Positions 1,864 through 28,590 of a stretch of DNA of 64,000 bases are shown here, piece after piece. This stretch comes from an uncultured Holophagales bacterium (GTDB lineage: Bacteria; Acidobacteriota; Thermoanaerobaculia; Multivoradales; UBA5704), in assembly GCA_963842525.1 (NCBI GenBank), contig CAWJGT010000025.1, forward strand, positions 96,001-160,000, read 5' to 3'. A program made the position numbers and the translations under genes. Below the pieces are notes generated by a model, which saw only the letters and a list, made by a program, of their open reading frames with translations, did no database searches and was not told the origin of the DNA. Each line of letters begins with the position of its first letter. Position 1 is the first letter of the stretch.

Positions 1864-4473
1864 TGGACTGCTCCGCCGTCTACATCCTGCTTGGGTTCGT
1901 GATCATTTTCGTGGTCCTGGAGGCTCCGCCGCGCCGCCGAGCAGCGCCGCCTGGGGCATGAGGTCCGGCTCGAGATCTCGGGGCTCCTCGCGCGCCTCGG
2001 CCGGCTGGAGGCGCGCCTTGACCTGAGCTGTCTTCTCCCCGGGCAGAGGAGGCTCCAGTGGAGCAGCGCGCGGAGCCACCGCCGGTCGTAGCGGCCCAGC
2101 CGGTCCCTGAGGCACCTGCCGACATCCCGCCGCCCACCTCACTGCCAGAGGCGCTTCCGCCGGTTCCCGAGGAAGCTCCCGCGCCCCTGCCCCCTCGCGA
2201 CCCCGGTGCCGGTGCCGCGGCGGGCCGGCCTGGAGGAGCAGCTCGGAGCGCGGCTTCCGGTGTGGATCGGCTCGATCGCGCTCGCCCTGGCCGGCGCGTT
2301 CCTGGTCAAGTACTCGTTCGAGCGGATGTGGCTCTCGCCGACTGTCCGGGTGGGGTTGGGCGTGCTCTTCGGCCTCGGTCTGCTCGCCAGTGGCGAGGTG
2401 TTGCGCCGCAAGGCGGAGCGGATCTCCCAGGGGCTCTCGGCCGCCGGGATCGCCGACCTGTTCGCCTGCTTCCTGGCCGGAGTCCACCTCTACGGGATCA
2501 TCTCGCCAGGGGTCGGCTTCGCCCTCATGGCGCTGACCACCGCAGTGGCCGTGATCCTCTCGCTTCGCCAGGGGATCATGGTGGCGCTGATCGGGCTGAT
2601 CGGCGGCCTTCTGACGCCGTACCTCGTGCAGACCGGCGAGCCGAACGCCCGCGGCCTGTTCGTCTACCTGCTGCTGCTCCAGGTGGGTCTTCTCACGGTG
2701 GCGCGGCGCCGCGGCTGGCCCTGGATTGCAGGGCTGGCCCTGGGGGGCGGGCTTCTCTGGATGATTGCCTGGCTCGTGGGTCCGTTCGAGCCGCAGGACT
2801 CGCCATGGCTGGGAGGCTTCCTCCTGCTTTCGGTGATCGCTGCGCTGGCCGCAGGGTGGTCCGGTGTGAAGGCCACGGGCCCGCCGGGCTTCCTGCGGAT
2901 GTCGTGGGCGGCGGTTCCCTGCGGCCTGCTCGCTCTGGGCCTGCTTGCCGGCCGGGCAGGCTATACGACGATCGAATGGGCCTTCTTCGGGCTGCTCGCG
3001 GCCGGCACGCTGGTGCTGGCGCGGCTGCGGCCGGAGCTCGAAGGGCTCGCCTGGATCGCCGCCGGGACCGGCGCGGCGCTCCTCGGCGCCTGGGGCTGGG
3101 CGGTCGAAGAGCCGGACATCGACCGTTTCCTCCTCACCGCGTCGGGGCTCGGCGTCCTCTTTGCCGGCGGCTCCTGGCTCGCCCTGCGGGGCTCGGTGCG
3201 GCCGGGCCGCTGGGGCGCGCTCTGCGCCGCCTCCGGCCTCGCGTTCTTCCTGATCGCCTGGGCCTCCACCAACACCGAGCGGGAGATGCGCTGGGGCGCA
3301 TTCGCTCTGGCCCTGGCGGCGCTCTACCTGGTGGCGGCCGTGCCGGTGGCACGCTGGCGGCGGCAGCGGCCGGAGATGGAAGCTGCTCTGGCCGCTCTGG
3401 CAGTGTCGATCACGAGCTTCGTCAGCCTCGCGGTTCCCCTGGAGCTGGACCGCCACTGGTTGACGGTCGCCTGGGCCCTGGAGGTGACGGCGCTGGTCTG
3501 GCTCGCCGGGCGCTTCCGGCTGCCGGTCCTGCGCCACCTCGCCCTCGCGCTGGCCGTCCTCGTCGGGTTCCGGTTGCTGCTGAATGCCTCGATTCTCGAC
3601 TACCCGATCGGCGACCATCCGGTGTTCCATTGGCTCCTCTATGGGTACGGCCTGCCGCTCCTGGCCTTCGCGGCGGCGTCGGCCCTCGCCCGCCGGCAGG
3701 GGGATGGACGCCTGGCCGCTCTGCTCGAAGCGGAAGCCCTGGCCTTCGCCTTCGCCCTGGTGACCCTGGAGGTCCGGCAGATCTACCACCCCGGCCGGCC
3801 CGCGGTCGGCGCGGTGGGGCTGGGCGAGTGGGGGGCCCTGCTCTCCGCCTGGACGGCCCTCGGCGGCGGGCTGCTCGTTGCCAATCGCCAGCGCCGGCTT
3901 CAGACCGTCGAGATCGGAGGGCAGGTCGTGCTGGGCTTGGCGGCGGTGGCGACACTGCTCGGCCCGGTCCTGGCCGCGAACCCTCTGTGGGTACACGCGG
4001 CGGTGGGGGAGACCCCGGTCTTCAACCTCCTCCTCTGGACCTACGGTCTGCCGGCCGTGCTGCTGGCCTTCGCCGCCGCCGAGGTCCGCCGGCATGGGAG
4101 CGCCCGGCTGGCAGGGGCGCTGACCGCCACGGTCCTGGCGCTCGCCTTCATCCTCGTCTCCCTGGAGGTGCGCCAGGCCTTCCAGGGGACCTATCTGGAT
4201 GCCGGCACCACCTCTCTGGCCGAGGGCTATGCCTACTCGGCGGCCTGGATCGTCTTCGGGGTGGCGCTGTTGGTCCTGGGCATCCTGGGGAAGGGGAAAG
4301 CGTTGCGCTACGCCGCGCTGGCGGTCATGCTGCTGGCCGTGGCCAAGGTCTTCCTGTACGACACGTCCAATCTGGCGGGCCTGTACCGCGTATTCTCCTT
4401 CTTCGGCCTGGGAGTGAGCCTGCTGGTTCTCGCCTGGGTCTACCAGAGGTTCGTGTTCCGGGAGAGCGCGTAG
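1864..4473 (+). CDS. DUF2339-like polytopic membrane protein (5' part frameshifted in this assembly)
   Basis: ORF 2206-4473 has about 20 hydrophobic segments, starts LEEQLGARLPVWIG and ends KVFLYDTSNLAGLYRVFSF. The hydrophobic N-terminus (ATG 1864) and a Pro-rich linker (2058 frame) lie in other frames. Confidence 0.75.
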
Positions 4474-23879: not shown

Positions 23880-23924
23880 GGCGCAGGCGGCGGAGCGCGG
23901 GCGGTCCGGCCCGATCTCGCGGCT

Positions 23925-24086
23925 TCCACCTGTCCACGATGGACAGTCGGTCCCGGTCTCCTGCTGTCCACCGGTCCGCGGTGGACAGTCACTGCCGGTT
24001 CCGGCGCCGCCACCAGTCCGGGTCGGACAGTTCATCCTGAGCGATGGACGGTTGCAGCCTCAGGAGGGACTGTCCGACCTGCACCG
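23925..24086. repeat. Left part of a degenerate 21-bp-period repeat array
   Basis: GGACRG at 23941, 23983, 24025 and 24046 (multiples of 21 apart), followed by CTGTCCGACC at 24070. Confidence 0.65.
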
Positions 24087-24255
24087 GGTCGTGTCCTAAT
24101 TCGATGTGGGTGCCCCAGGCATAGGGGGTGGGGGTATCGAACTACTATACCTTCCCTCTCCAGGAGGAATTTACCTCTCCGCTGACAATCTGGTAGCGGC
24201 CCGACAGGGTGTCGTTAGCACCCCGCCGGACCTACCCGAGCAAGGGAGTTACCCC

Positions 24256-24600
24256 ATGCCCGAGCAGTCTGATTCTACCCCTCCGCCCGTCCCCGAGCAC
24301 ACCGCCGAGGAGATCGCAGCGCAGATGGTCGTCAAGTGCTGCGGCTCCTTCCTCAAGACCGCCCGGCTCTGTCTCCAGGCATTGGAGGAGGAGCTGGCCT
24401 ACCCTGCCGACAGTGAAGCCATGGGAGAGTGCCGCGTCCCGCAGTCCGTTGTCTTCGCCCTTCGTGGCACTCTGGAGTGCATCCGCGTTGACGACCTGGA
24501 GCCAGCGATCCTCGCACTCGAAGAGGCAGCCGACCTCACCCCCGAGGATCTGTACGCAGAGTGGCGACGTCGGCAGGCGGAGAAAGGGGAGGAGGTCTAA
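24256..24600 (+). CDS. Hypothetical acidic helical protein (transposon cargo)
   Basis: GGGAG RBS, preceded by a leader hairpin at 24198-24232; 114 aa. Confidence 0.65.
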   Translation: MPEQSDSTPPPVPEHTAEEIAAQMVVKCCGSFLKTARLCLQALEEELAYPADSEAMGECRVPQSVVFALRGTLECIRVDDLEPAILALEEAADLTPEDLYAEWRRRQAEKGEEV

Positions 24601-24601
24601 C

Positions 24602-24899
24602 ATGGCGTGGTACCACGAGGACCGCCGCAAGCTTCTCGCTCCCGTGGGTGAGTACCGCCCGCAGAAAGTAGCCGTCACCATCCATGACACCTTCGACCAG
24701 CGCCGGCTCGACGAAGCGGCACGGCAAGCTCTGGGGAACGGTACCCCGCTTGCGAAGTTCCTCCTTTACTGCGCTGACCACGTCATCCGTCACCATCCCA
24801 AACTCAAAGAGACGTTCCGCGAATTCGAGCGGGAGCGGCGGGAAGCTCCAGGCGAAACGGAAGGCCGAAGAGGCGGAGATACCCAACCGATGGGCATGA
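24602..24899 (+). CDS. Small RHH-like protein (probable 1-nt frameshift near 24843)
   Basis: GGAGG RBS. VAVTI strand, helix, G-TPLAKFLL helix. The alternative frame ends KLQAKRKAEEAEIPNRWA* with an ATGA overlap onto the next gene. Confidence 0.5.
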
Positions 24900-25348
24900 A
24901 GACGGCCTCCTTCACTGTCAGAGCCGACGTCCGGCAATCGGCGCGCTGGAAGATGGCGGCCGAGTCCGAGGGTTTCGCTTCGGTCGGGGCATGGGCCGCA
25001 GGAGCCCTAGACGCCTATCTGGAGCACCGCAGAACCGCCGGCCGTCCTCTCCCCCTGGCTTGGCACCTTGGGCGCTTCCGCGTGCGCCTGGAAGATGGCA
25101 CGGAGCCGGAGCTGCGGGGGTGGCTCTCCAGGCCGTTCGGGATCTTCCACGGCTCGTCCGCAGGGCCGATCCCGACCGGCTCCACGCACACCTACTCCCT
25201 TGTGTTCCTGCCGGAGCGCAAGCTGCTCGCGACGTTCCGCTATGCCCGTCACTGCCGCAGTCTTGCCGGCGAGCTGGCACCTCTTCTCCTGCGGGATGAA
25301 CAGGCGGCGGCGGCTGTCACGGCGCGGCACGTCAGGGAAGCCACGTAA
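24896..25348 (+). CDS. Protein with N-terminal RHH-like domain and unknown C-terminal domain
   Basis: FTVRADVRQSARWKMAAESEGFASVGAWAAGALDAYL fits a strand-helix-helix pattern. Confidence 0.55.
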   Translation: MKTASFTVRADVRQSARWKMAAESEGFASVGAWAAGALDAYLEHRRTAGRPLPLAWHLGRFRVRLEDGTEPELRGWLSRPFGIFHGSSAGPIPTGSTHTYSLVFLPERKLLATFRYARHCRSLAGELAPLLLRDEQAAAAVTARHVREAT

Positions 25349-25356
25349 AGGACCCG

Positions 25357-25390
25357 GGGGCCGGCTTCCTAGAGGGGGCCGGCCCCTTTT
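25357..25390 (+). terminator. Rho-independent terminator
   Basis: GGGGCCGGCTTCCT/AGGGGGCCGGCCCC stem followed by TTTT. Confidence 0.75.
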
Positions 25391-25400
25391 GTCGCACCAA

Positions 25401-25430
25401 TTGACAAGCAGGGGCAAATTGCCCCATGAT
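25401..25430 (+). promoter_or_regulatory. Promoter with palindromic operator in the spacer
   Basis: TTGACA-18 nt-CATGAT. GGGGCAAATTGCCCC palindrome at 25411-25425. Confidence 0.55.
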
Positions 25431-25498
25431 GCGGCATTATGACCCAAGCTAGAACTTCGTCTCTACGGCGCCATCGACAAATGCTACCCTTCAACCCT

Positions 25499-25954
25499 AT
25501 GAGCCTGATCGACGACCTTAAGCCGCTACTCGATGAGCATACACAGGAAGCTCAGAAGGCAGAGAAGCGATGGAAAGAGCTGAGGGAGAAGTGGCTGGAA
25601 GTACGGCGCTCGGTCATCTTGCCGCCTCTGCAACAAGCAGTGCAGTTGATCGCTGACAATAATCCTCTGGGACTGGAAGCATCGGCGGACCTCGGGAAGG
25701 AAGACGAGGTCGCGCTCTACGTCAGGTATCAGACCGCTACGAAGGTTGAATATTTCCTGCGGTTTGATCTAGACGCGAGTTTCGAGATTGTCTGCTCATC
25801 CTCATTTGATGAGACCCACCCGCAACCGCGAATGCACGGACTTGACTCCGTAGACACCGCGGATATTGATGGTCGGATTGTGGATTTCTTCAAGCGCTTT
25901 TTGCTCCATCGCTCAGCGTATGATGGTAGAGGCATCCGCGAATTCACGCGGTAA
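25499..25954 (+). CDS. Hypothetical low-GC cargo protein
   Basis: 151-aa ORF with an N-terminal coiled coil, convergent with the transposase. Confidence 0.6.
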   Translation: MSLIDDLKPLLDEHTQEAQKAEKRWKELREKWLEVRRSVILPPLQQAVQLIADNNPLGLEASADLGKEDEVALYVRYQTATKVEYFLRFDLDASFEIVCSSSFDETHPQPRMHGLDSVDTADIDGRIVDFFKRFLLHRSAYDGRGIREFTR

Positions 25955-26942
25955 GCAGATCCCGCACCGTCCAGGGCTTCCTTACAATCCCTGCCTTCAT
26001 CGCCGGAGTCATCCGGATAGAGGAGTGAATCCAGGTGAAGTTGTAGGCGGCGAAGTGGACCGCCAGTGCCGCCCGCAGGTTCTCCCGCTTCCGAGAGAAT
26101 GCGTTCGTCAGTCTGGTGAATCTCCGCATCTGCATTCTGATATGGAGATTGTTCCGCTCTACATGGCTAGTGCAGATCCGATGCTCATCCGGAGTCCCCT
26201 GAATCACGATCTTCTCAGAGGCTATTATGGACGGCGGGCTGTACCGCCGTTCGCTGTCGAGTCCCTCCCCTGAGTAGGTCTTGACTAATTGTGCGTAATC
26301 GACCCGGGCACCGAGATGCCGCTCGATTGCCTCGGGATATGCCGGCCATCCATCCGTCGTGAGTTGATAGGTTTCCTGCCCGTCCTTCGCCGTTGCAGCC
26401 GTGGCGAGCTTGGCGACAAAGACCGACGTATCCTCAGAGGTCCGGTGACCCATGTGGTGAGTCAGGACAAGCTTGGACTCCCGATCGTGAGCCACGAAGG
26501 TATAGGCATCGCCGAATTCCGGGTCCGTCTCGCCTTTGCGGGCCTTTGTCTTCTCCTTCATGCCCACGAAGCACCACAGCTCGTCCGCCTGGACGTCCTT
26601 CACCGGGACGGCCCGTAGGTGCTTGCCCAGGATCGCCTCGCACTTGCCGCCCGCGAGCCGCAGGAGCCGCATGATCGTGTCCCGGTGGATTCCCGTGACC
26701 CTCTCTGTGCTCCGAATCGAGGCGCCCTCTGTCAGGAGGGACACGCAGAGGACGGCCTTGTCCAGGTCGATCCGCATCCGGCCGAGGGGGCGCTCTGGGA
26801 TGAGCCCGAACGTCGCCCCGCACGTCTTGCACTTCCGGCGCGGGTTGCCGCCCTTGTCCTTGCCCCAACCGATCGTACGACCGCCGCAGGACCGGCAGGG
26901 GGTCCCTTCGAGGGTGGGCAGGGTGAGGGTTGGGGCGTCCAT
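25944..26942 (-). CDS. IS1-family DDE transposase (single ORF: Zn ribbon + HTH + DDE)
   Basis: CRSC...CKTC zinc ribbon, GASIRSTERVTGIHRDT HTH, QADELWCFV, TTDGWPAY, TSHVERNNLHIRMQMRRFTRLTNAFSRK. Confidence 0.92.
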   Translation of the reverse strand: MDAPTLTLPTLEGTPCRSCGGRTIGWGKDKGGNPRRKCKTCGATFGLIPERPLGRMRIDLDKAVLCVSLLTEGASIRSTERVTGIHRDTIMRLLRLAGGKCEAILGKHLRAVPVKDVQADELWCFVGMKEKTKARKGETDPEFGDAYTFVAHDRESKLVLTHHMGHRTSEDTSVFVAKLATAATAKDGQETYQLTTDGWPAYPEAIERHLGARVDYAQLVKTYSGEGLDSERRYSPPSIIASEKIVIQGTPDEHRICTSHVERNNLHIRMQMRRFTRLTNAFSRKRENLRAALAVHFAAYNFTWIHSSIRMTPAMKAGIVRKPWTVRDLLTA

Positions 26943-26957
26943 GTCTCTCTTGATCTC

Positions 26958-27041
26958 TACGGACATTGTACGGACACAGTACGACTATGTCAAGGGGTTT
27001 GGACCTTGAATCTTCCGGAAGTTTTCCGTACACTGTCCGTA
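26958..27041. promoter_or_regulatory. Back-to-back sigma70 promoters with twin operators
   Basis: Minus strand TTGACA-17-TACAAT (26993-26965) and plus strand TTGAAT-17-TACACT (27006-27034). Each -10 is embedded in TCCGTACA(A/C)TGTCCGTA. Confidence 0.8.
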
Positions 27042-27235
27042 TGCCTAGATCCATGCCATCCGCCAAGGACTCCCGCCTGGAGATCCGCGTCTCTGAGGAC
27101 GAGAAGGAGCAGTTTCAGAGAGCTGCCGATCAAGACGGCCGGCCCCTGTCAAACTGGATCAGGGACCGGCTCTTGAAGGCCGTACGTGTCGAGCTGGAGC
27201 CGATCGAGCCGCCCGCCGTGAAGAAGAGCCGCTAG
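27041..27235 (+). CDS. RHH (DUF1778/MobC-like) DNA-binding protein
   Basis: KDSRLEIRVSEDEKEQFQRAADQDGRPLSNWIRDRL. ATG lies 6 nt after the -10. Confidence 0.8.
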   Translation: MPRSMPSAKDSRLEIRVSEDEKEQFQRAADQDGRPLSNWIRDRLLKAVRVELEPIEPPAVKKSR

Positions 27236-27421
27236 CCGGTATCCAGGCCCGCGGGAGGGACTTCAGGTTCAGGCCCCAGATGAATCGATGTCGGGGTACA
27301 GATCCGCCGTAGAAGTGTGCCATAGGCATCTCCGGTCTTGACTCGGAGGAAGCCATGGCTTAGGATGGCAGACGGACAGAGCTGCATCCTTGAAGCCATT
27401 TGGCTTCTCGGGTCGGTTCAG

Positions 27422-27491
27422 TGGAGCGGAAGGGAATCGAACCCTCGGTCAGGGGGTCTCAAGCCACGACCGTGGACCATCCACCCGCCCC
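27422..27491 (-). ncRNA. tRNA-like element (atypical)
   Basis: Acceptor stem GGGGCGG/CCGCTCC+A, T-arm GAGGG-TTCGATT-CCCTT, minimal D-arm GGA-TGG-TCC, long imperfect arm with a CTTGAGA loop, no CCA. Confidence 0.55.
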
Positions 27492-27507
27492 GTGTTTCAC
27501 CTAGAGA

Positions 27508-27536
27508 GCCCCGCTCCGGCGGGGTTTTCGCTTTTT
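27508..27536 (+). terminator. Rho-independent terminator
   Basis: CCCCGC-TCCG-GCGGGG followed by TTTTCGCTTTTT. Confidence 0.75.
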
Positions 27537-27674
27537 AGTCCTCCGTGGCGCCCTCCTTCGGAAGAAGTTGTAGCTTGATCTGGCGCCACAAGTCAAGCCA
27601 GAAATGAGCCAATCAGGAGAAAAGATCTGCGGTACTGACTCAGGACGTACTGAGTACGTACTCTAGGCAGGGAA

Positions 27675-28277
27675 TCAGCGGTAAGAGATGGACGGGAGAC
27701 CGATAAGCTTCTGGTGTGGCGATGGCAGGCGAACTGTCAACCTGAGCTTCAGTCCGGGGCGGTTCAGGATCGGCTTATTGTCTGCGGTTACTGCTACGAA
27801 GAAAAAGTAGCATCTTTGCTCGGAACGCGCCGGAATCGTGTACTGTCCTTCCGGGAAGTGTAAATAGTCGGCCACCCGGCCCATGGGATCAATAGCCATC
27901 CTTGGCCCGACCGTGACCGGGATGATTTTCGTCCGGCGCCACCGCGCAACATGAACCAGAGCCGGATCGGTCGGGCGTACCGTTACCGCGTTGTCCGTGT
28001 CGTTGTGTACGGCTATCAGCAGGGTGAGGTATAGGCCGTTCGGCTCGTGTCGGTCCTCTTGCCTGAACTCTGCTTGGGTGACTTGGGCATTGAAGGTCAC
28101 ACGGCCCGCTCCCGTCTTTTTTCGGCGAAGGTCAGGCCAGAATCCCCACAACAGGCATGCCGCGACACCTACCAGGGAGACCGCCGCTTTGACCAGATCT
28201 TCGGTCACGGCGTACACCGTTGCCACGGCCGTACAGGCGAGCCCAACGGCGGTAAGACGCCGAGTCTGAAGATCCAC
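27675..28277 (-). CDS. Hypothetical membrane-anchored cargo protein
   Basis: Two N-terminal TM segments followed by a beta-rich domain. TATACT lies 6 nt before the GTG. Confidence 0.65.
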   Translation of the reverse strand: MDLQTRRLTAVGLACTAVATVYAVTEDLVKAAVSLVGVAACLLWGFWPDLRRKKTGAGRVTFNAQVTQAEFRQEDRHEPNGLYLTLLIAVHNDTDNAVTVRPTDPALVHVARWRRTKIIPVTVGPRMAIDPMGRVADYLHFPEGQYTIPARSEQRCYFFFVAVTADNKPILNRPGLKLRLTVRLPSPHQKLIGLPSISYR

Positions 28278-28356
28278 GGGAGGAGTATAATTAGAGGGCG
28301 GTTCCAGCTCTTCAACTTACGCCTCTGTACCACCTACATCGAATTAGGACACGACC

Positions 28357-28590
28357 CTGCACCGCGATCTGTCCGTCCTGCGCTGGAAACCGTCCGACCC
28401 GCGGAAGAGACTGTCCGACCTGCGCTGGAACAGTCCGTCCCACGGAAGAGACTGTCCGACCTGCTGCGTCAACCGTCCGACCCGCACGGCGAACTGTCCG
28501 ACCTGCAGGAGAAACCGTCCGTTCCGCAGGTCCAACTGTCCATGGACCACAGCCGTTCGCGCCAGGATCGGGGCCGACTGTCCGGTGCGG
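28357..28590 (+). repeat. Right part of the 21-bp-period repeat array
   Basis: About 9-10 units beginning C(T/C)GTCCG(A/T)CC, e.g. CTGTCCGACCTGCAGGAGAAA. Confidence 0.8.

Follow-up and report, generated by a model that had tools for sequence, protein, structure and literature searches.

An IS1-family transposon with predicted regulatory, helper and RNA modules in a 21-bp tandem array of an acidobacterial genome

In the genome of an uncultured Holophagales bacterium, an intergenic tandem array of 21-bp units is interrupted by a 4.27-kb insertion, which raises the question of what moved there, which of its parts belong to the moving machinery and why it lies in such a place. The window analyzed here is the whole stretch C25:96001-160000 (64,000 nucleotides; contig CAWJGT010000025.1) of a 9.95-Mb assembly in 34 contigs (GCA_963842525.1). 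The bounds of the element, positions 24087-28356 of the window, were read directly from it. The element is very probably a complete IS1-family tIS, i.e. an insertion sequence (IS) with passenger genes, of predicted competence for transposition, that is regulated by a ribbon-helix-helix (RHH) protein, equipped with the helper genes orfA and orfB and an RNA module, and drawn to arrays of period 21. Its identity as a transposon is firm, and the regulatory, RNA and targeting roles of its parts are predicted. A preliminary description of the locus had already proposed an IS1-family transposon with passenger genes and regulatory parts of its own, a view supported by Pfam and NCBIfam matches, by the ends and by the promoters. 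The insertion is delimited by the following features.

24087..24112, plus strand: left terminal inverted repeat, 26 bp, starting GGTCGTG (direct reading, repeat search)
28331..28356, minus strand: right terminal inverted repeat, 26 bp (direct reading, repeat search)
24079..24086, unstranded: left copy of the 8-bp target-site duplication CTGCACCG, identical to the right copy
28357..28364, unstranded: right copy of the 8-bp target-site duplication CTGCACCG, exact
23900..28560, unstranded: host target, an intergenic tandem array of period 21 with the core CYGTCCGACC and 11 variable bp, flanking the element on both sides (reading, repeat search)

The left end reads GGTCGTGTCCTAATTCGATGTGGGTG (24087-24112) and its reverse complement is found at 28331-28356 with 25 of 26 positions matching; the repeat search returned 27-nt arms for the two ends, 96% complementary. 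When the element and one copy of CTGCACCG are removed, the virtual empty site consists of CTGTCCGACCTGCACCG joined to CGAT and then CTGTCCGTCC, and the 21-bp register runs through it unbroken. The presence of a complete element with 26-bp ends (25/26), an exact 8-bp duplication and an intact transposase was thus confirmed by reading, repeat search and Pfam, and the earlier statement that excision restores the 21-bp period of the host holds over the reconstructed site. Six credible open reading frames (ORFs) lie inside the element, and all core ORFs are open.

The central gene is the one on which the family assignment depends.

25944..26942, minus strand: IS1-type transposase, 332 amino acids from the ATG at 26942 (Pfam, NCBIfam, alignment)

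Members of the IS1 family have ends starting GG...TG and make duplications of 8-9 bp, and in classical IS1 the transposase is encoded by two ORFs joined by a -1 frameshift. The protein studied here matches the Pfam family PF03400 (DDE_Tnp_IS1) with 34.6 bits (E 2.9e-08; cut-off 24.1). Its best NCBIfam model is IS1 (NF033558) at 77.2 bits, under the curated equivalog cut-off of 100, and IS1595 (NF033547) reaches 23.7 bits for a cut-off of 75. The nearest annotated genes in the plasmid collection are named 'IS1 family transposase' and show 36-42% identity. In an alignment of ten transposases down to 35% identity, the motif CxxC-16-CxxC (conserved in all aligned sequences that reach that region) and the residues D120, D197 and E262 are invariant, and the arginine-rich block that follows the glutamate, ER.N...R....R..RLT...S, is kept as well. 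The N-terminus comprises a zinc finger and a helix-turn-helix (HTH), with 23 bits for NF050000 (cut-off 28) and weak matches to HTH_29 and HTH_28. Judged by these comparisons, the transposase appears closest to IS1 yet divergent. Its true start is most likely ATG 26942 and not ATG 26966, because ATGGACGCC is the start shared by relatives and ATG 26966 sits within the -10 box. The N-terminal zinc finger and HTH, the DDE domain passing PF03400, the GG...TG-type ends and the 8-bp duplications are shared with the IS1 family. By contrast with classical IS1, this family has one long ORF without programmed frameshift, measures 3.6-7.8 kb instead of about 0.8 kb and adds a conserved RHH repressor, a strong internal promoter, conserved orfA/orfB, a conserved structured RNA and insertion into 21-bp arrays. 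The single ORF presumably places the element with the single-ORF IS1 subgroups of ISfinder, of which ISMhu11 is one, and not with classical IS1. In the mechanism that we propose, this single-ORF zinc-finger/HTH/DDE transposase would recognize the 26-bp ends and cut the target with an 8-bp stagger.

Is the element an isolated case or one member of a family? A search with the ends and the transposase, as suggested in the preliminary description, recovered a whole family, in which a core is conserved and the cargo varies. The 44 related loci were obtained by a back-translated pattern scan, one genome per species being considered, and belong to metagenome-assembled genomes (MAGs) of Acidobacteriota and Planctomycetota; the closest transposase relatives are found in MAGs of Thermoanaerobaculia (Acidobacteriota). 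The end finder accepted pairs of ends with 17 or more of 22 bases matching, the same two first bases and an exact duplication, 8 bp being tried first. It delimited 21 of the 44 loci (2,914-7,201 bp, with related GGT-initiated ends, GG opening every pair found), the remaining ones being cut by contig ends or failing these criteria. Together with five elements of this genome, including the present copy (E1), the family counts 26 delimited elements, all of which are flanked by 8-bp duplications, the length tried first. The smallest elements, of about 3.6-4.0 kb, present the order end, some 300 bp, RNA module, RHH gene, transposase, variable stretch, orfB, orfA or its analogue, end.

The other elements of this genome are diverse. 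E2 (C9:1428911-1433571, 4661 bp, duplication TCCTGCGG) and E3 (C25:397346-401417, 4072 bp, duplication CAGCCGCG) code for transposases 86% and 72% identical to that of this copy, respectively. E4 (C3:1051712-1052550, 839 bp, duplication AGATCAGG), located within a 21-bp array, retains the complete left end, 12 bp of the right end and an orfA remnant, and is a deletion product or a non-autonomous copy. The element C1a (C1:34437-42220, 7784 bp, duplication TCCCGCGG, ends starting GGTAGTGCTGCC) sits in a 21/63-bp array, carries its own orfA and orfB and represents a more distant subfamily, with a transposase about 45% identical. The ends of C1a hold CCTAGACAA, the complement of the loop TTGTCTAGG that is conserved in the RNA module of the other subfamily, possibly by chance. 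Two further transposase loci of this genome are broken or not delimitable. Solo copies of family ends, for which no partner end was detected under the end-finder criteria, were also observed at C9:167098 and C10:28817.

Beside the transposase, the family core includes orfB, which in this copy is preceded by orfA and followed by a candidate terminator.

24256..24600, plus strand: orfA, 114 amino acids, helical, first gene inward from the left end (without match in Pfam or NCBIfam)
24602..25348, plus strand: orfB, 248 amino acids, starting 1 nt after the orfA stop (tblastn, profile search, model)
25357..25392, plus strand: terminator-like GC-rich hairpin and T-run after orfB (reading, repeat search; absent from the terminator scan list)

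Of the 26 loci with a transposase identity of 60% or more, 25 carry orfB by tblastn, the sole exception being cut 0.8 kb after the transposase; among the 18 more distant loci, orfB was found in 2. The same search found orfA in 0 of the 44 loci; in ten elements its position is taken by another family of small genes, with a proline-rich start like that of orfA. Within this genome, orfB lies near all seven transposase loci and orfA near six of them, including loci at 39-45% transposase identity. The pair is always oriented inward from an end, and either end is possible relative to the transposase. Residues 97-248 of the orfB product correspond to a conserved family of about 155 residues, in which an N-terminal RHH fold is joined to a beta/alpha domain without match; the preceding extension (residues 1-96) forms a separate ORF in the paralogue E2. 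This family has no Pfam domain and its members are named only 'hypothetical'. It gave 182 matches in a word-based search, and a full profile search over 1.84 billion representatives returned 232 matches at E <=0.001, 141 of them at <=1e-10. The AlphaFold model of the orfB product (pLDDT 88) contains the RHH fold at residues 97-150. A wide structure search with this model returned RHH proteins in all of its top 25 rows, with Z 5.1-6.8, which is modest (below 8) though the list is uniform, and with root-mean-square deviations of 1.1-4.3 Å (19 of 25 under 2.5 Å) over 43-55 residues. For the C-terminal domain, Foldseek gave nothing against the PDB at E <=0.001 and the wide structure search matched the RHH part only; a Pfam scan of 36 family members ended without match and a PDB sequence profile search without credible match. 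Since orfA and orfB are kept with the transposase down to about 40% identity and the orfB product has an RHH DNA-binding fold, both genes are read as transposition helpers rather than cargo. They would serve at the end opposite the RHH/transposase block.

How would such an element be controlled? The RHH gene and the transposase gene diverge from a shared intergenic region in which the following features were recognized.

27041..27235, plus strand: RHH (Arc/CopG-like) repressor gene, 64 amino acids, divergent from the transposase, probably leaderless (Pfam, NCBIfam, PHROGs)
26965..26993, minus strand: transposase promoter TTGACA-17-TACAAT, 11 of 12 consensus positions (promoter scan)
26958..27041, unstranded: predicted operator-like repeats (direct reading, comparison with relatives)

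The RHH gene was detected by tblastn in 15 of the 26 loci with a transposase at least 60% identical and in 2 of the 18 more distant ones, counts whose sensitivity is limited by the shortness of the protein. Its product matches NikA-like, TacA1 and RHH families in Pfam and Arc-like repressors in PHROGs; the matches to antitoxin families (TacA1, RelB) in Pfam and NCBIfam are weak. Two copies of TACGGACA with a spacing of 11 bp (26958-65 and 26969-76) overlap the -10 box of the transposase promoter, and an inverted copy, TGTCCGTA, is found at the start of the RHH gene (27034-41). An Arc-like RHH protein would bind these 8-bp repeats and thereby keep the transposase and RHH genes both repressed. 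Relatives carry other repeats at the operator position, and an element-specific autoregulation would fit operator repeats that vary between relatives. The operator TGTCCGTA and the core of the host array are alike in this copy; a link between them was considered and rejected, as L021 and L040 have the same operator and unrelated arrays.

The regulatory parts announced in the preliminary description were largely recovered. Its several promoters correspond to 4 promoter-like sites found by the scan of the element where 0.9 were expected. Its two terminators correspond to a terminator-like hairpin at 27504-27537, reported by the scan, and to the GC hairpin with T-run at 25357-25392, recognized by reading and repeat search. 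Three RHH-like genes had been listed: the gene at 27041-27235 is upheld by Pfam and PHROGs and the RHH fold of orfB (residues 97-150) by the model and the structure search, and the third (orfB residues ~20-65) was seen by eye only. The promoter of the RHH gene was assigned by eye and lies under the scan threshold. In cargo gene 1 and in the RHH gene (25401-25441 and 27006-27043), the start codon is located 7-9 nt past the -10 box, which suggests leaderless mRNAs for both genes.

The position of the element within a tandem array recurs in other members of the family. Arrays of period 20-22, 41-42 or 63 span 14 of the 25 empty sites that were reconstructed with 400 bp on each side, or 15 of 26 when C1a is included. 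At a score of at least 60, 10 of 15 insertion points are spanned by an array, compared with 49 of 78,903 bases (0.06%) in the background more than 400 bp from the insertions of the same 15 acidobacterial loci; genome-wide, arrays of period 20-22 occupy 23,743 of 9,949,763 bases (0.24%). Four of the five delimited elements of this genome lie inside an array and the fifth, E3, 16 bp past the end of one. No array was found at L020, L036 and L038, and the right flank of L037 is cut. The array units differ between sites and the flanks of many elements are visibly repetitive; the 8-bp duplications show a weak (not-G)C...GGG tendency only. The array context is more consistent across sites than any motif. 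The family, this copy included, would insert preferentially into host tandem arrays of period 21. IS1397 and ISKpn1 insert in REP/BIME sequences and IS621 in REP sequences. These elements have in common with the present family a strong preference for one class of short repeated intergenic host sequence; they differ in that the target here is a tandem array of fixed 21-bp period and varied sequence, and in that the transposase belongs to another family.

The distribution of orfB bears on how the target could be chosen. Arrays surround 15 of the 20 delimited elements that carry orfB and 0 of the 6 that do not. The predicted DNA-reading strand of the orfB product varies between elements: it is identical in L030 and L041, whose arrays have the same GACCCnnGGGTC core, and the orfB products of E1 and E2 are 89% identical, their arrays sharing GACCTGC, with E3 lying in a different array. 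L020 breaks this correspondence of strand and array, the sample is small and element type is confounded with host lineage. The idea that orfA and orfB form a target-selection module, in which the orfB product binds tandem repeats cooperatively and steers the DDE transposase into period-21 arrays, as a targeted transposition accompanied by a small RNA, is tentative and on balance doubtful. If it were true, the family would be a system of targeted transposition that has not been described before and comes with a small RNA. As a branch of IS1 with added proteins, the family would offer a simple two- or three-protein system for work on the aiming of a plain DDE transposase at its target.

Downstream of the RHH gene, a non-coding module is conserved in part of the family.

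27338..27417, plus strand: long imperfect hairpin of the conserved non-coding module (alignment, folding, covariation)
27338..27366, plus strand: promoter-like TTGACT-17-TAGGAT in the 5' arm of the long hairpin (promoter scan)
27504..27537, plus strand: 3' hairpin of the module followed by TTTTCGCTTTTT, terminator-like (alignment, terminator scan, covariation)

Comparison of the non-coding pieces by blastn revealed two conserved blocks 3' of the RHH gene, about 50 nt apart in relatives and 132 nt apart here. In the alignment, an invariant TTGAC is followed 17-18 nt on by TAGGAT, TAGAAT or TACGAT, then by a hairpin with a variable stem and the largely conserved loop TTGTCTAGG, by a second pairing region, by TAGAGAG and by a GC hairpin leading into TTTTCGCTTT. 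Single-sequence folds agree on one long imperfect hairpin with the promoter-like hexamers in its 5' arm; in this copy it reaches -40.7 kcal/mol (z -4.15), a value attained by 0 of 200 shuffles. RNAalifold predicted 29 pairs from ten sequences, 13 of them with compensatory changes. With the covariance model R1 built on the module, matches at E <=0.023 were obtained in 19 of 48 sources; all lie on the RHH strand and, where an RHH gene was detected, directly 3' of it. Within this genome, R1 matched this copy and E2 only. When the 16 best R1 matches were aligned by fitting to the R1 model, pairing reached 91.7% of cells, against 41-58% with slid partners, and 18 of the 29 pairs covary, a number reached by 0 of 500 shuffles. 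G-U exceeds A-C by 26:0 in the 3' hairpin and by 20:10 in the long hairpin, an excess which indicates that the RNA strand is the RHH-sense strand. The module is most likely a small RNA or the structured 3' end of the RHH transcript, and in either form it would act in regulation, as predicted from its structure and position.

RNA-OUT of IS10 and art200 of IS200 are IS-encoded regulatory RNAs. The module resembles them as a small structured RNA with its own promoter within the element, both predicted here, and differs in that it is not antisense to the transposase gene. Pairing of the module RNA with the 5' region of its own transposase gene was considered and found no support: the mean duplex energy was -37.2 for own and -36.6 for cross-pairings, the own partner ranking 1-13 of 14. 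A connection between loop and operator was likewise discarded as a family rule. In this copy the loop ACGGACAG matches the operator repeat and the start region of the transposase, but L040 and L021 have the same operator and a different loop, and no such link was found in the other elements compared. Single-stranded-DNA promoters occur on conjugative plasmids, and a further possibility, by analogy, is that the module may function as a promoter of that kind.

Several observations weigh against the reading of the locus as a competent, regulated and array-seeking IS1-family transposon. Its transposase falls short of the IS1 equivalog cut-off and is one continuous 332-residue ORF, without the frameshifted two-ORF layout of classical IS1. 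The element is single-copy in its genome, and in the block formed by transposase and RHH gene (query 1868-3283) its nearest paralogue is 79% identical in DNA, the remaining matched blocks being at 77-92%. The search for an empty site in relatives that the preliminary description had recommended was carried out in 20 other genomes of the family and yielded none. Array preference is confounded with host lineage, as all 15 array insertions concern Acidobacteriota-type elements, and the 6 delimited elements of planctomycetes and Blastocatellia show no array. The orfA type is rare, with 7 proteins in a collection of 5.8 billion, 3 of which come from this genome. Repression by the RHH protein and the helper roles of orfA and orfB are predicted purely from position and conservation. 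The RNA module is not universal: 19 of 48 sources match R1, and neither the paralogue E3 nor the planctomycete relatives are among them. The pairing count over 16 sequences was made on the fitted alignment mentioned above. Moreover, transcription from the internal promoter would leave the 5' arm of the long hairpin outside the RNA, so that either the promoter or the RNA-hairpin reading is incomplete. Some of these points would suit a dead relic, i.e. a once-mobile IS1-type transposon that has become immobile and whose genes are drifting or domesticated. This explanation accounts for the single copy, for nearest paralogues that are only 72-87% identical in the transposase, for the split of the RNA module by an 84-nt insertion and for the two other transposase loci of this genome that are broken or not delimitable. 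It is nevertheless unlikely in view of an intact transposase ORF with all catalytic residues, core ORFs that are open, ends matching at 25 of 26 positions, a perfect duplication and a promoter with 11 of 12 consensus positions.

The preference for a competent transposon also has to be set against readings in which the transposase is not the main actor or does not choose the target by itself. The guidance of the DDE transposase by a non-coding RNA, the module or the tRNA-like RNA described below, through pairing with target DNA as in the bridge or guide RNAs of other IS families, is suggested by the conservation of the module near an element end and by the apical loop of the long hairpin of this copy, in which GACGGACAGA is complementary to 10 nt of the adjoining host array. 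Matches of at least 10 nt were, however, obtained in 5 of 132 cross-pairings of the RNA with the flanks of other elements, the best own matches of the other 11 elements measure 0-12 nt and involve differing parts of the RNA, most members keep the loop TTGTCTAGG although their targets differ, and the tRNA-like RNA is unique to this copy. We know of no RNA-guided IS1 transposase, and we consider this explanation very unlikely. The preliminary description had also seen a 'phage-like layout', and the locus could be imagined as a phage-like or satellite integrative element, or as a toxin-antitoxin island, in which an IS1 transposase just happens to be included. An Arc-like repressor in PHROGs, the weak TacA1 and RelB matches of the RHH protein, divergent promoters and terminators would all agree with it. 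Against these stands that PHROGs recognized only the transposase and the Arc-like repressor, without any replication, packaging, structural or integrase family, and that PADLOC returned nothing, hence no defence family; this is a failure to find only, as 4 of the 6 proteins match no family. No toxin family was matched in Pfam, NCBIfam or PADLOC, the products of orfA, orfB and cargo genes 1 and 2 matching no family at all, so that a novel toxin among them is conceivable, and the gene adjoining the RHH gene is the transposase. In 26 independent elements, moreover, what moved is bounded exactly by the two ends and carries an 8-bp duplication. The phage-like layout was thus not borne out, and a phage-like or toxin-antitoxin origin is scarcely credible.

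IS1 is among the oldest known insertion-sequence families and is usually seen as a minimal 0.8-kb element. Read as a transposon with its own machinery, the present family would be an IS1 branch grown to 4-8 kb, with a repressor, two helper proteins that match no known family, a covarying RNA and a preference for arrays. A literature search found no description of this family, its RNA or its target.

The remaining genes of this copy are cargo.

25439..25954, plus strand: cargo gene 1, 171 amino acids, unique to this copy (no family match)
25401..25430, plus strand: promoter-like site TTGACA-18-CATGAT before cargo gene 1 (promoter scan)
27675..28277, minus strand: cargo gene 2, 200 amino acids, hydrophobic N-terminus by eye, unique to this copy (no family match)

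Neither gene has a relative in the 44 related loci or in the paralogues by tblastn, in agreement with the two variable cargo genes expected beforehand. Nothing named was found for their products in Pfam, NCBIfam, PADLOC or PHROGs, and the Atlas gave unnamed clusters only. The GC content of cargo gene 1 is 53-55%, compared with 66-70% in host DNA. Insertion sequences with passenger genes are termed tIS in the accessible text of PMC7986276. The element is a tIS in that genes without a part in transposition lie inside its ends and vary between copies. Passenger genes within the inverted ends of an IS-like element and a cargo that changes from copy to copy are common to both; the difference is that part of the apparent cargo, namely the RHH gene, orfA/orfB and the RNA module, is conserved family-wide here. 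This conservation indicates that these parts are probably machinery and not passengers.

The last component of the element is a tRNA-like sequence that separates the two hairpins of the RNA module.

27418..27501, unstranded: 84-nt insertion between the two hairpins of the module (this copy alone among 12 aligned)
27419..27491, minus strand: tRNA-like cloverleaf, 73 nt (folding, ARAGORN at lowered threshold)

The acceptor stem of the cloverleaf is of alanine type and 7 bp long, with G3:U70 and A73, and the T arm is normal. Over 27 nt, the T arm and the 3' strand of the acceptor stem are 96% identical to the 3' portion of the host tRNA-Ala(GGC) gene. ARAGORN made no call at default settings and called the RNA only at the 95% threshold. 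All Rfam scores stay under their gathering values (tmRNA ends 26.1 bits vs 47, mascRNA 29.3 vs 42.5), and the folding energy is unremarkable (z -0.44, attained by 60 of 200 shuffles). A search of 300 other genomes of the class brought up no relative over the full length, only partial matches of about 22-40 nt, mostly to the T arm, the best one in a host tRNA-Ala gene. The tRNA-like RNA noticed beforehand thus stands as a cloverleaf with an alanine-type acceptor stem and falls as a module of the family, being an 84-nt insertion seen in this copy only of 12 and without relative in the 300 genomes. Its alanine identity elements suggest that it could be charged. In the history proposed for this copy, the RNA module would have been split by this tRNA-Ala-like insertion and two unrelated passenger genes would have been added.

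Other unusual tRNA genes accompany the family. ARAGORN at default settings places a tRNA gene at most 1.6 kb upstream of the transposase in 5 of the 44 loci. In L021, a gene of 93 nt (1371-1463) with the anticodon UAC (valine), class-II-like with a long variable arm, passes the Rfam tRNA cut-off with 51.7 bits and lies inside the ends of a 5.8-kb family member whose operator repeats are identical to those of the present element; the tRNA of L043 also passes, with 59.7 bits. In the planctomycete loci L049, L052, L056, L057 and L058, a UAU-type tRNA-like gene lies 390-530 bp upstream of the transposase, a count that rests on ARAGORN. These genes measure 93-98 nt in four loci and 76 nt in L049, have 8/4- or 9/3-like stems and score under the Rfam tRNA cut-off; those of L056 and L058 lie inside delimited ends. 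In the delimited locus L051, only a T-loop motif and a TAT anticodon-loop context were seen about 700 bp upstream, inside the ends, and ARAGORN made no call even at 90%. All six loci (L049, L051, L052, L056, L057, L058) belong to Planctomycetota MAGs and have transposases 43-47% identical, without RHH gene and orfB.

These genes recall the allo-tRNAs. According to the accessible text of Mukai et al. (2017; PMC5389517), UAU-type allo-tRNAs are maybe linked to transposable elements, and acidobacterial allo-tRNA loci are described there and in a review (PMC7609411, accessible part) as adjoining transposon-related and RHH 'antitoxin-like' genes. As far as these descriptions go, the likeness consists of non-canonical tRNA genes next to transposon-related or RHH genes, with UAU and UAC types inside members of the present family. 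The RNA of this copy differs from them, when compared by description, in its 73 nt, its alanine-type acceptor stem, the lack of a long variable arm and the lack of relatives; an 8/4 acceptor/T reading is possible by eye only, at 73 nt and without variable arm. The term IS1 does not occur in the accessible text of PMC5389517, nor is IS1 named in that of the review PMC7609411. By description, the IS1-type family may be the transposon association suspected for allo-tRNAs, and it would give a genomic home to the 'orphan' non-canonical tRNA genes for which the available text of Mukai et al. suspects a transposon link (PMC5389517).

As to the neighbouring genes in the window, which bear on the search for an empty site, the ankyrin-repeat gene has no orthology-level match among the 20 other genomes of the family (one hit at 39%), and the HAD-type gene is present in 4 of these 20 at no more than 60-71% identity.

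The element finally draws attention to the period-21 arrays themselves, the commonest tandem repeat of this 10-Mb genome. Period 21 leads by far, with 200 of 712 TRF clusters and more at 42, 63 and 126. Many of the arrays have a core in common, e.g. CYGTCCGACC or GACCTGCGGGTC, with some 11 variable bases after it. To the left of the insertion (23930-24086), the array motif also occurs inverted, together with short palindromes, e.g. CTGTCCAC..GTGGACAG, so that the intergenic region appears as a large imperfect inverted arrangement of array units. Two arrays of 16 copies of the 20-bp unit TATCCACCGCGACRTAAGCT are present on different contigs (C1:320911-321232 and C3:42649-42969). A 21-bp repeat of 2.1 copies, with units TGGCGAAGCTCACAGTTCTCT and CAAGACAACGCTGAGCTTCGC, recurs in either orientation at at least nine sites, e.g. 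C1:39357, 81556, 132584, 161260 and 688842, C11:31142 and 171718, and C17:10566, one copy lying inside C1a. This repeat is probably part of another multi-copy element.

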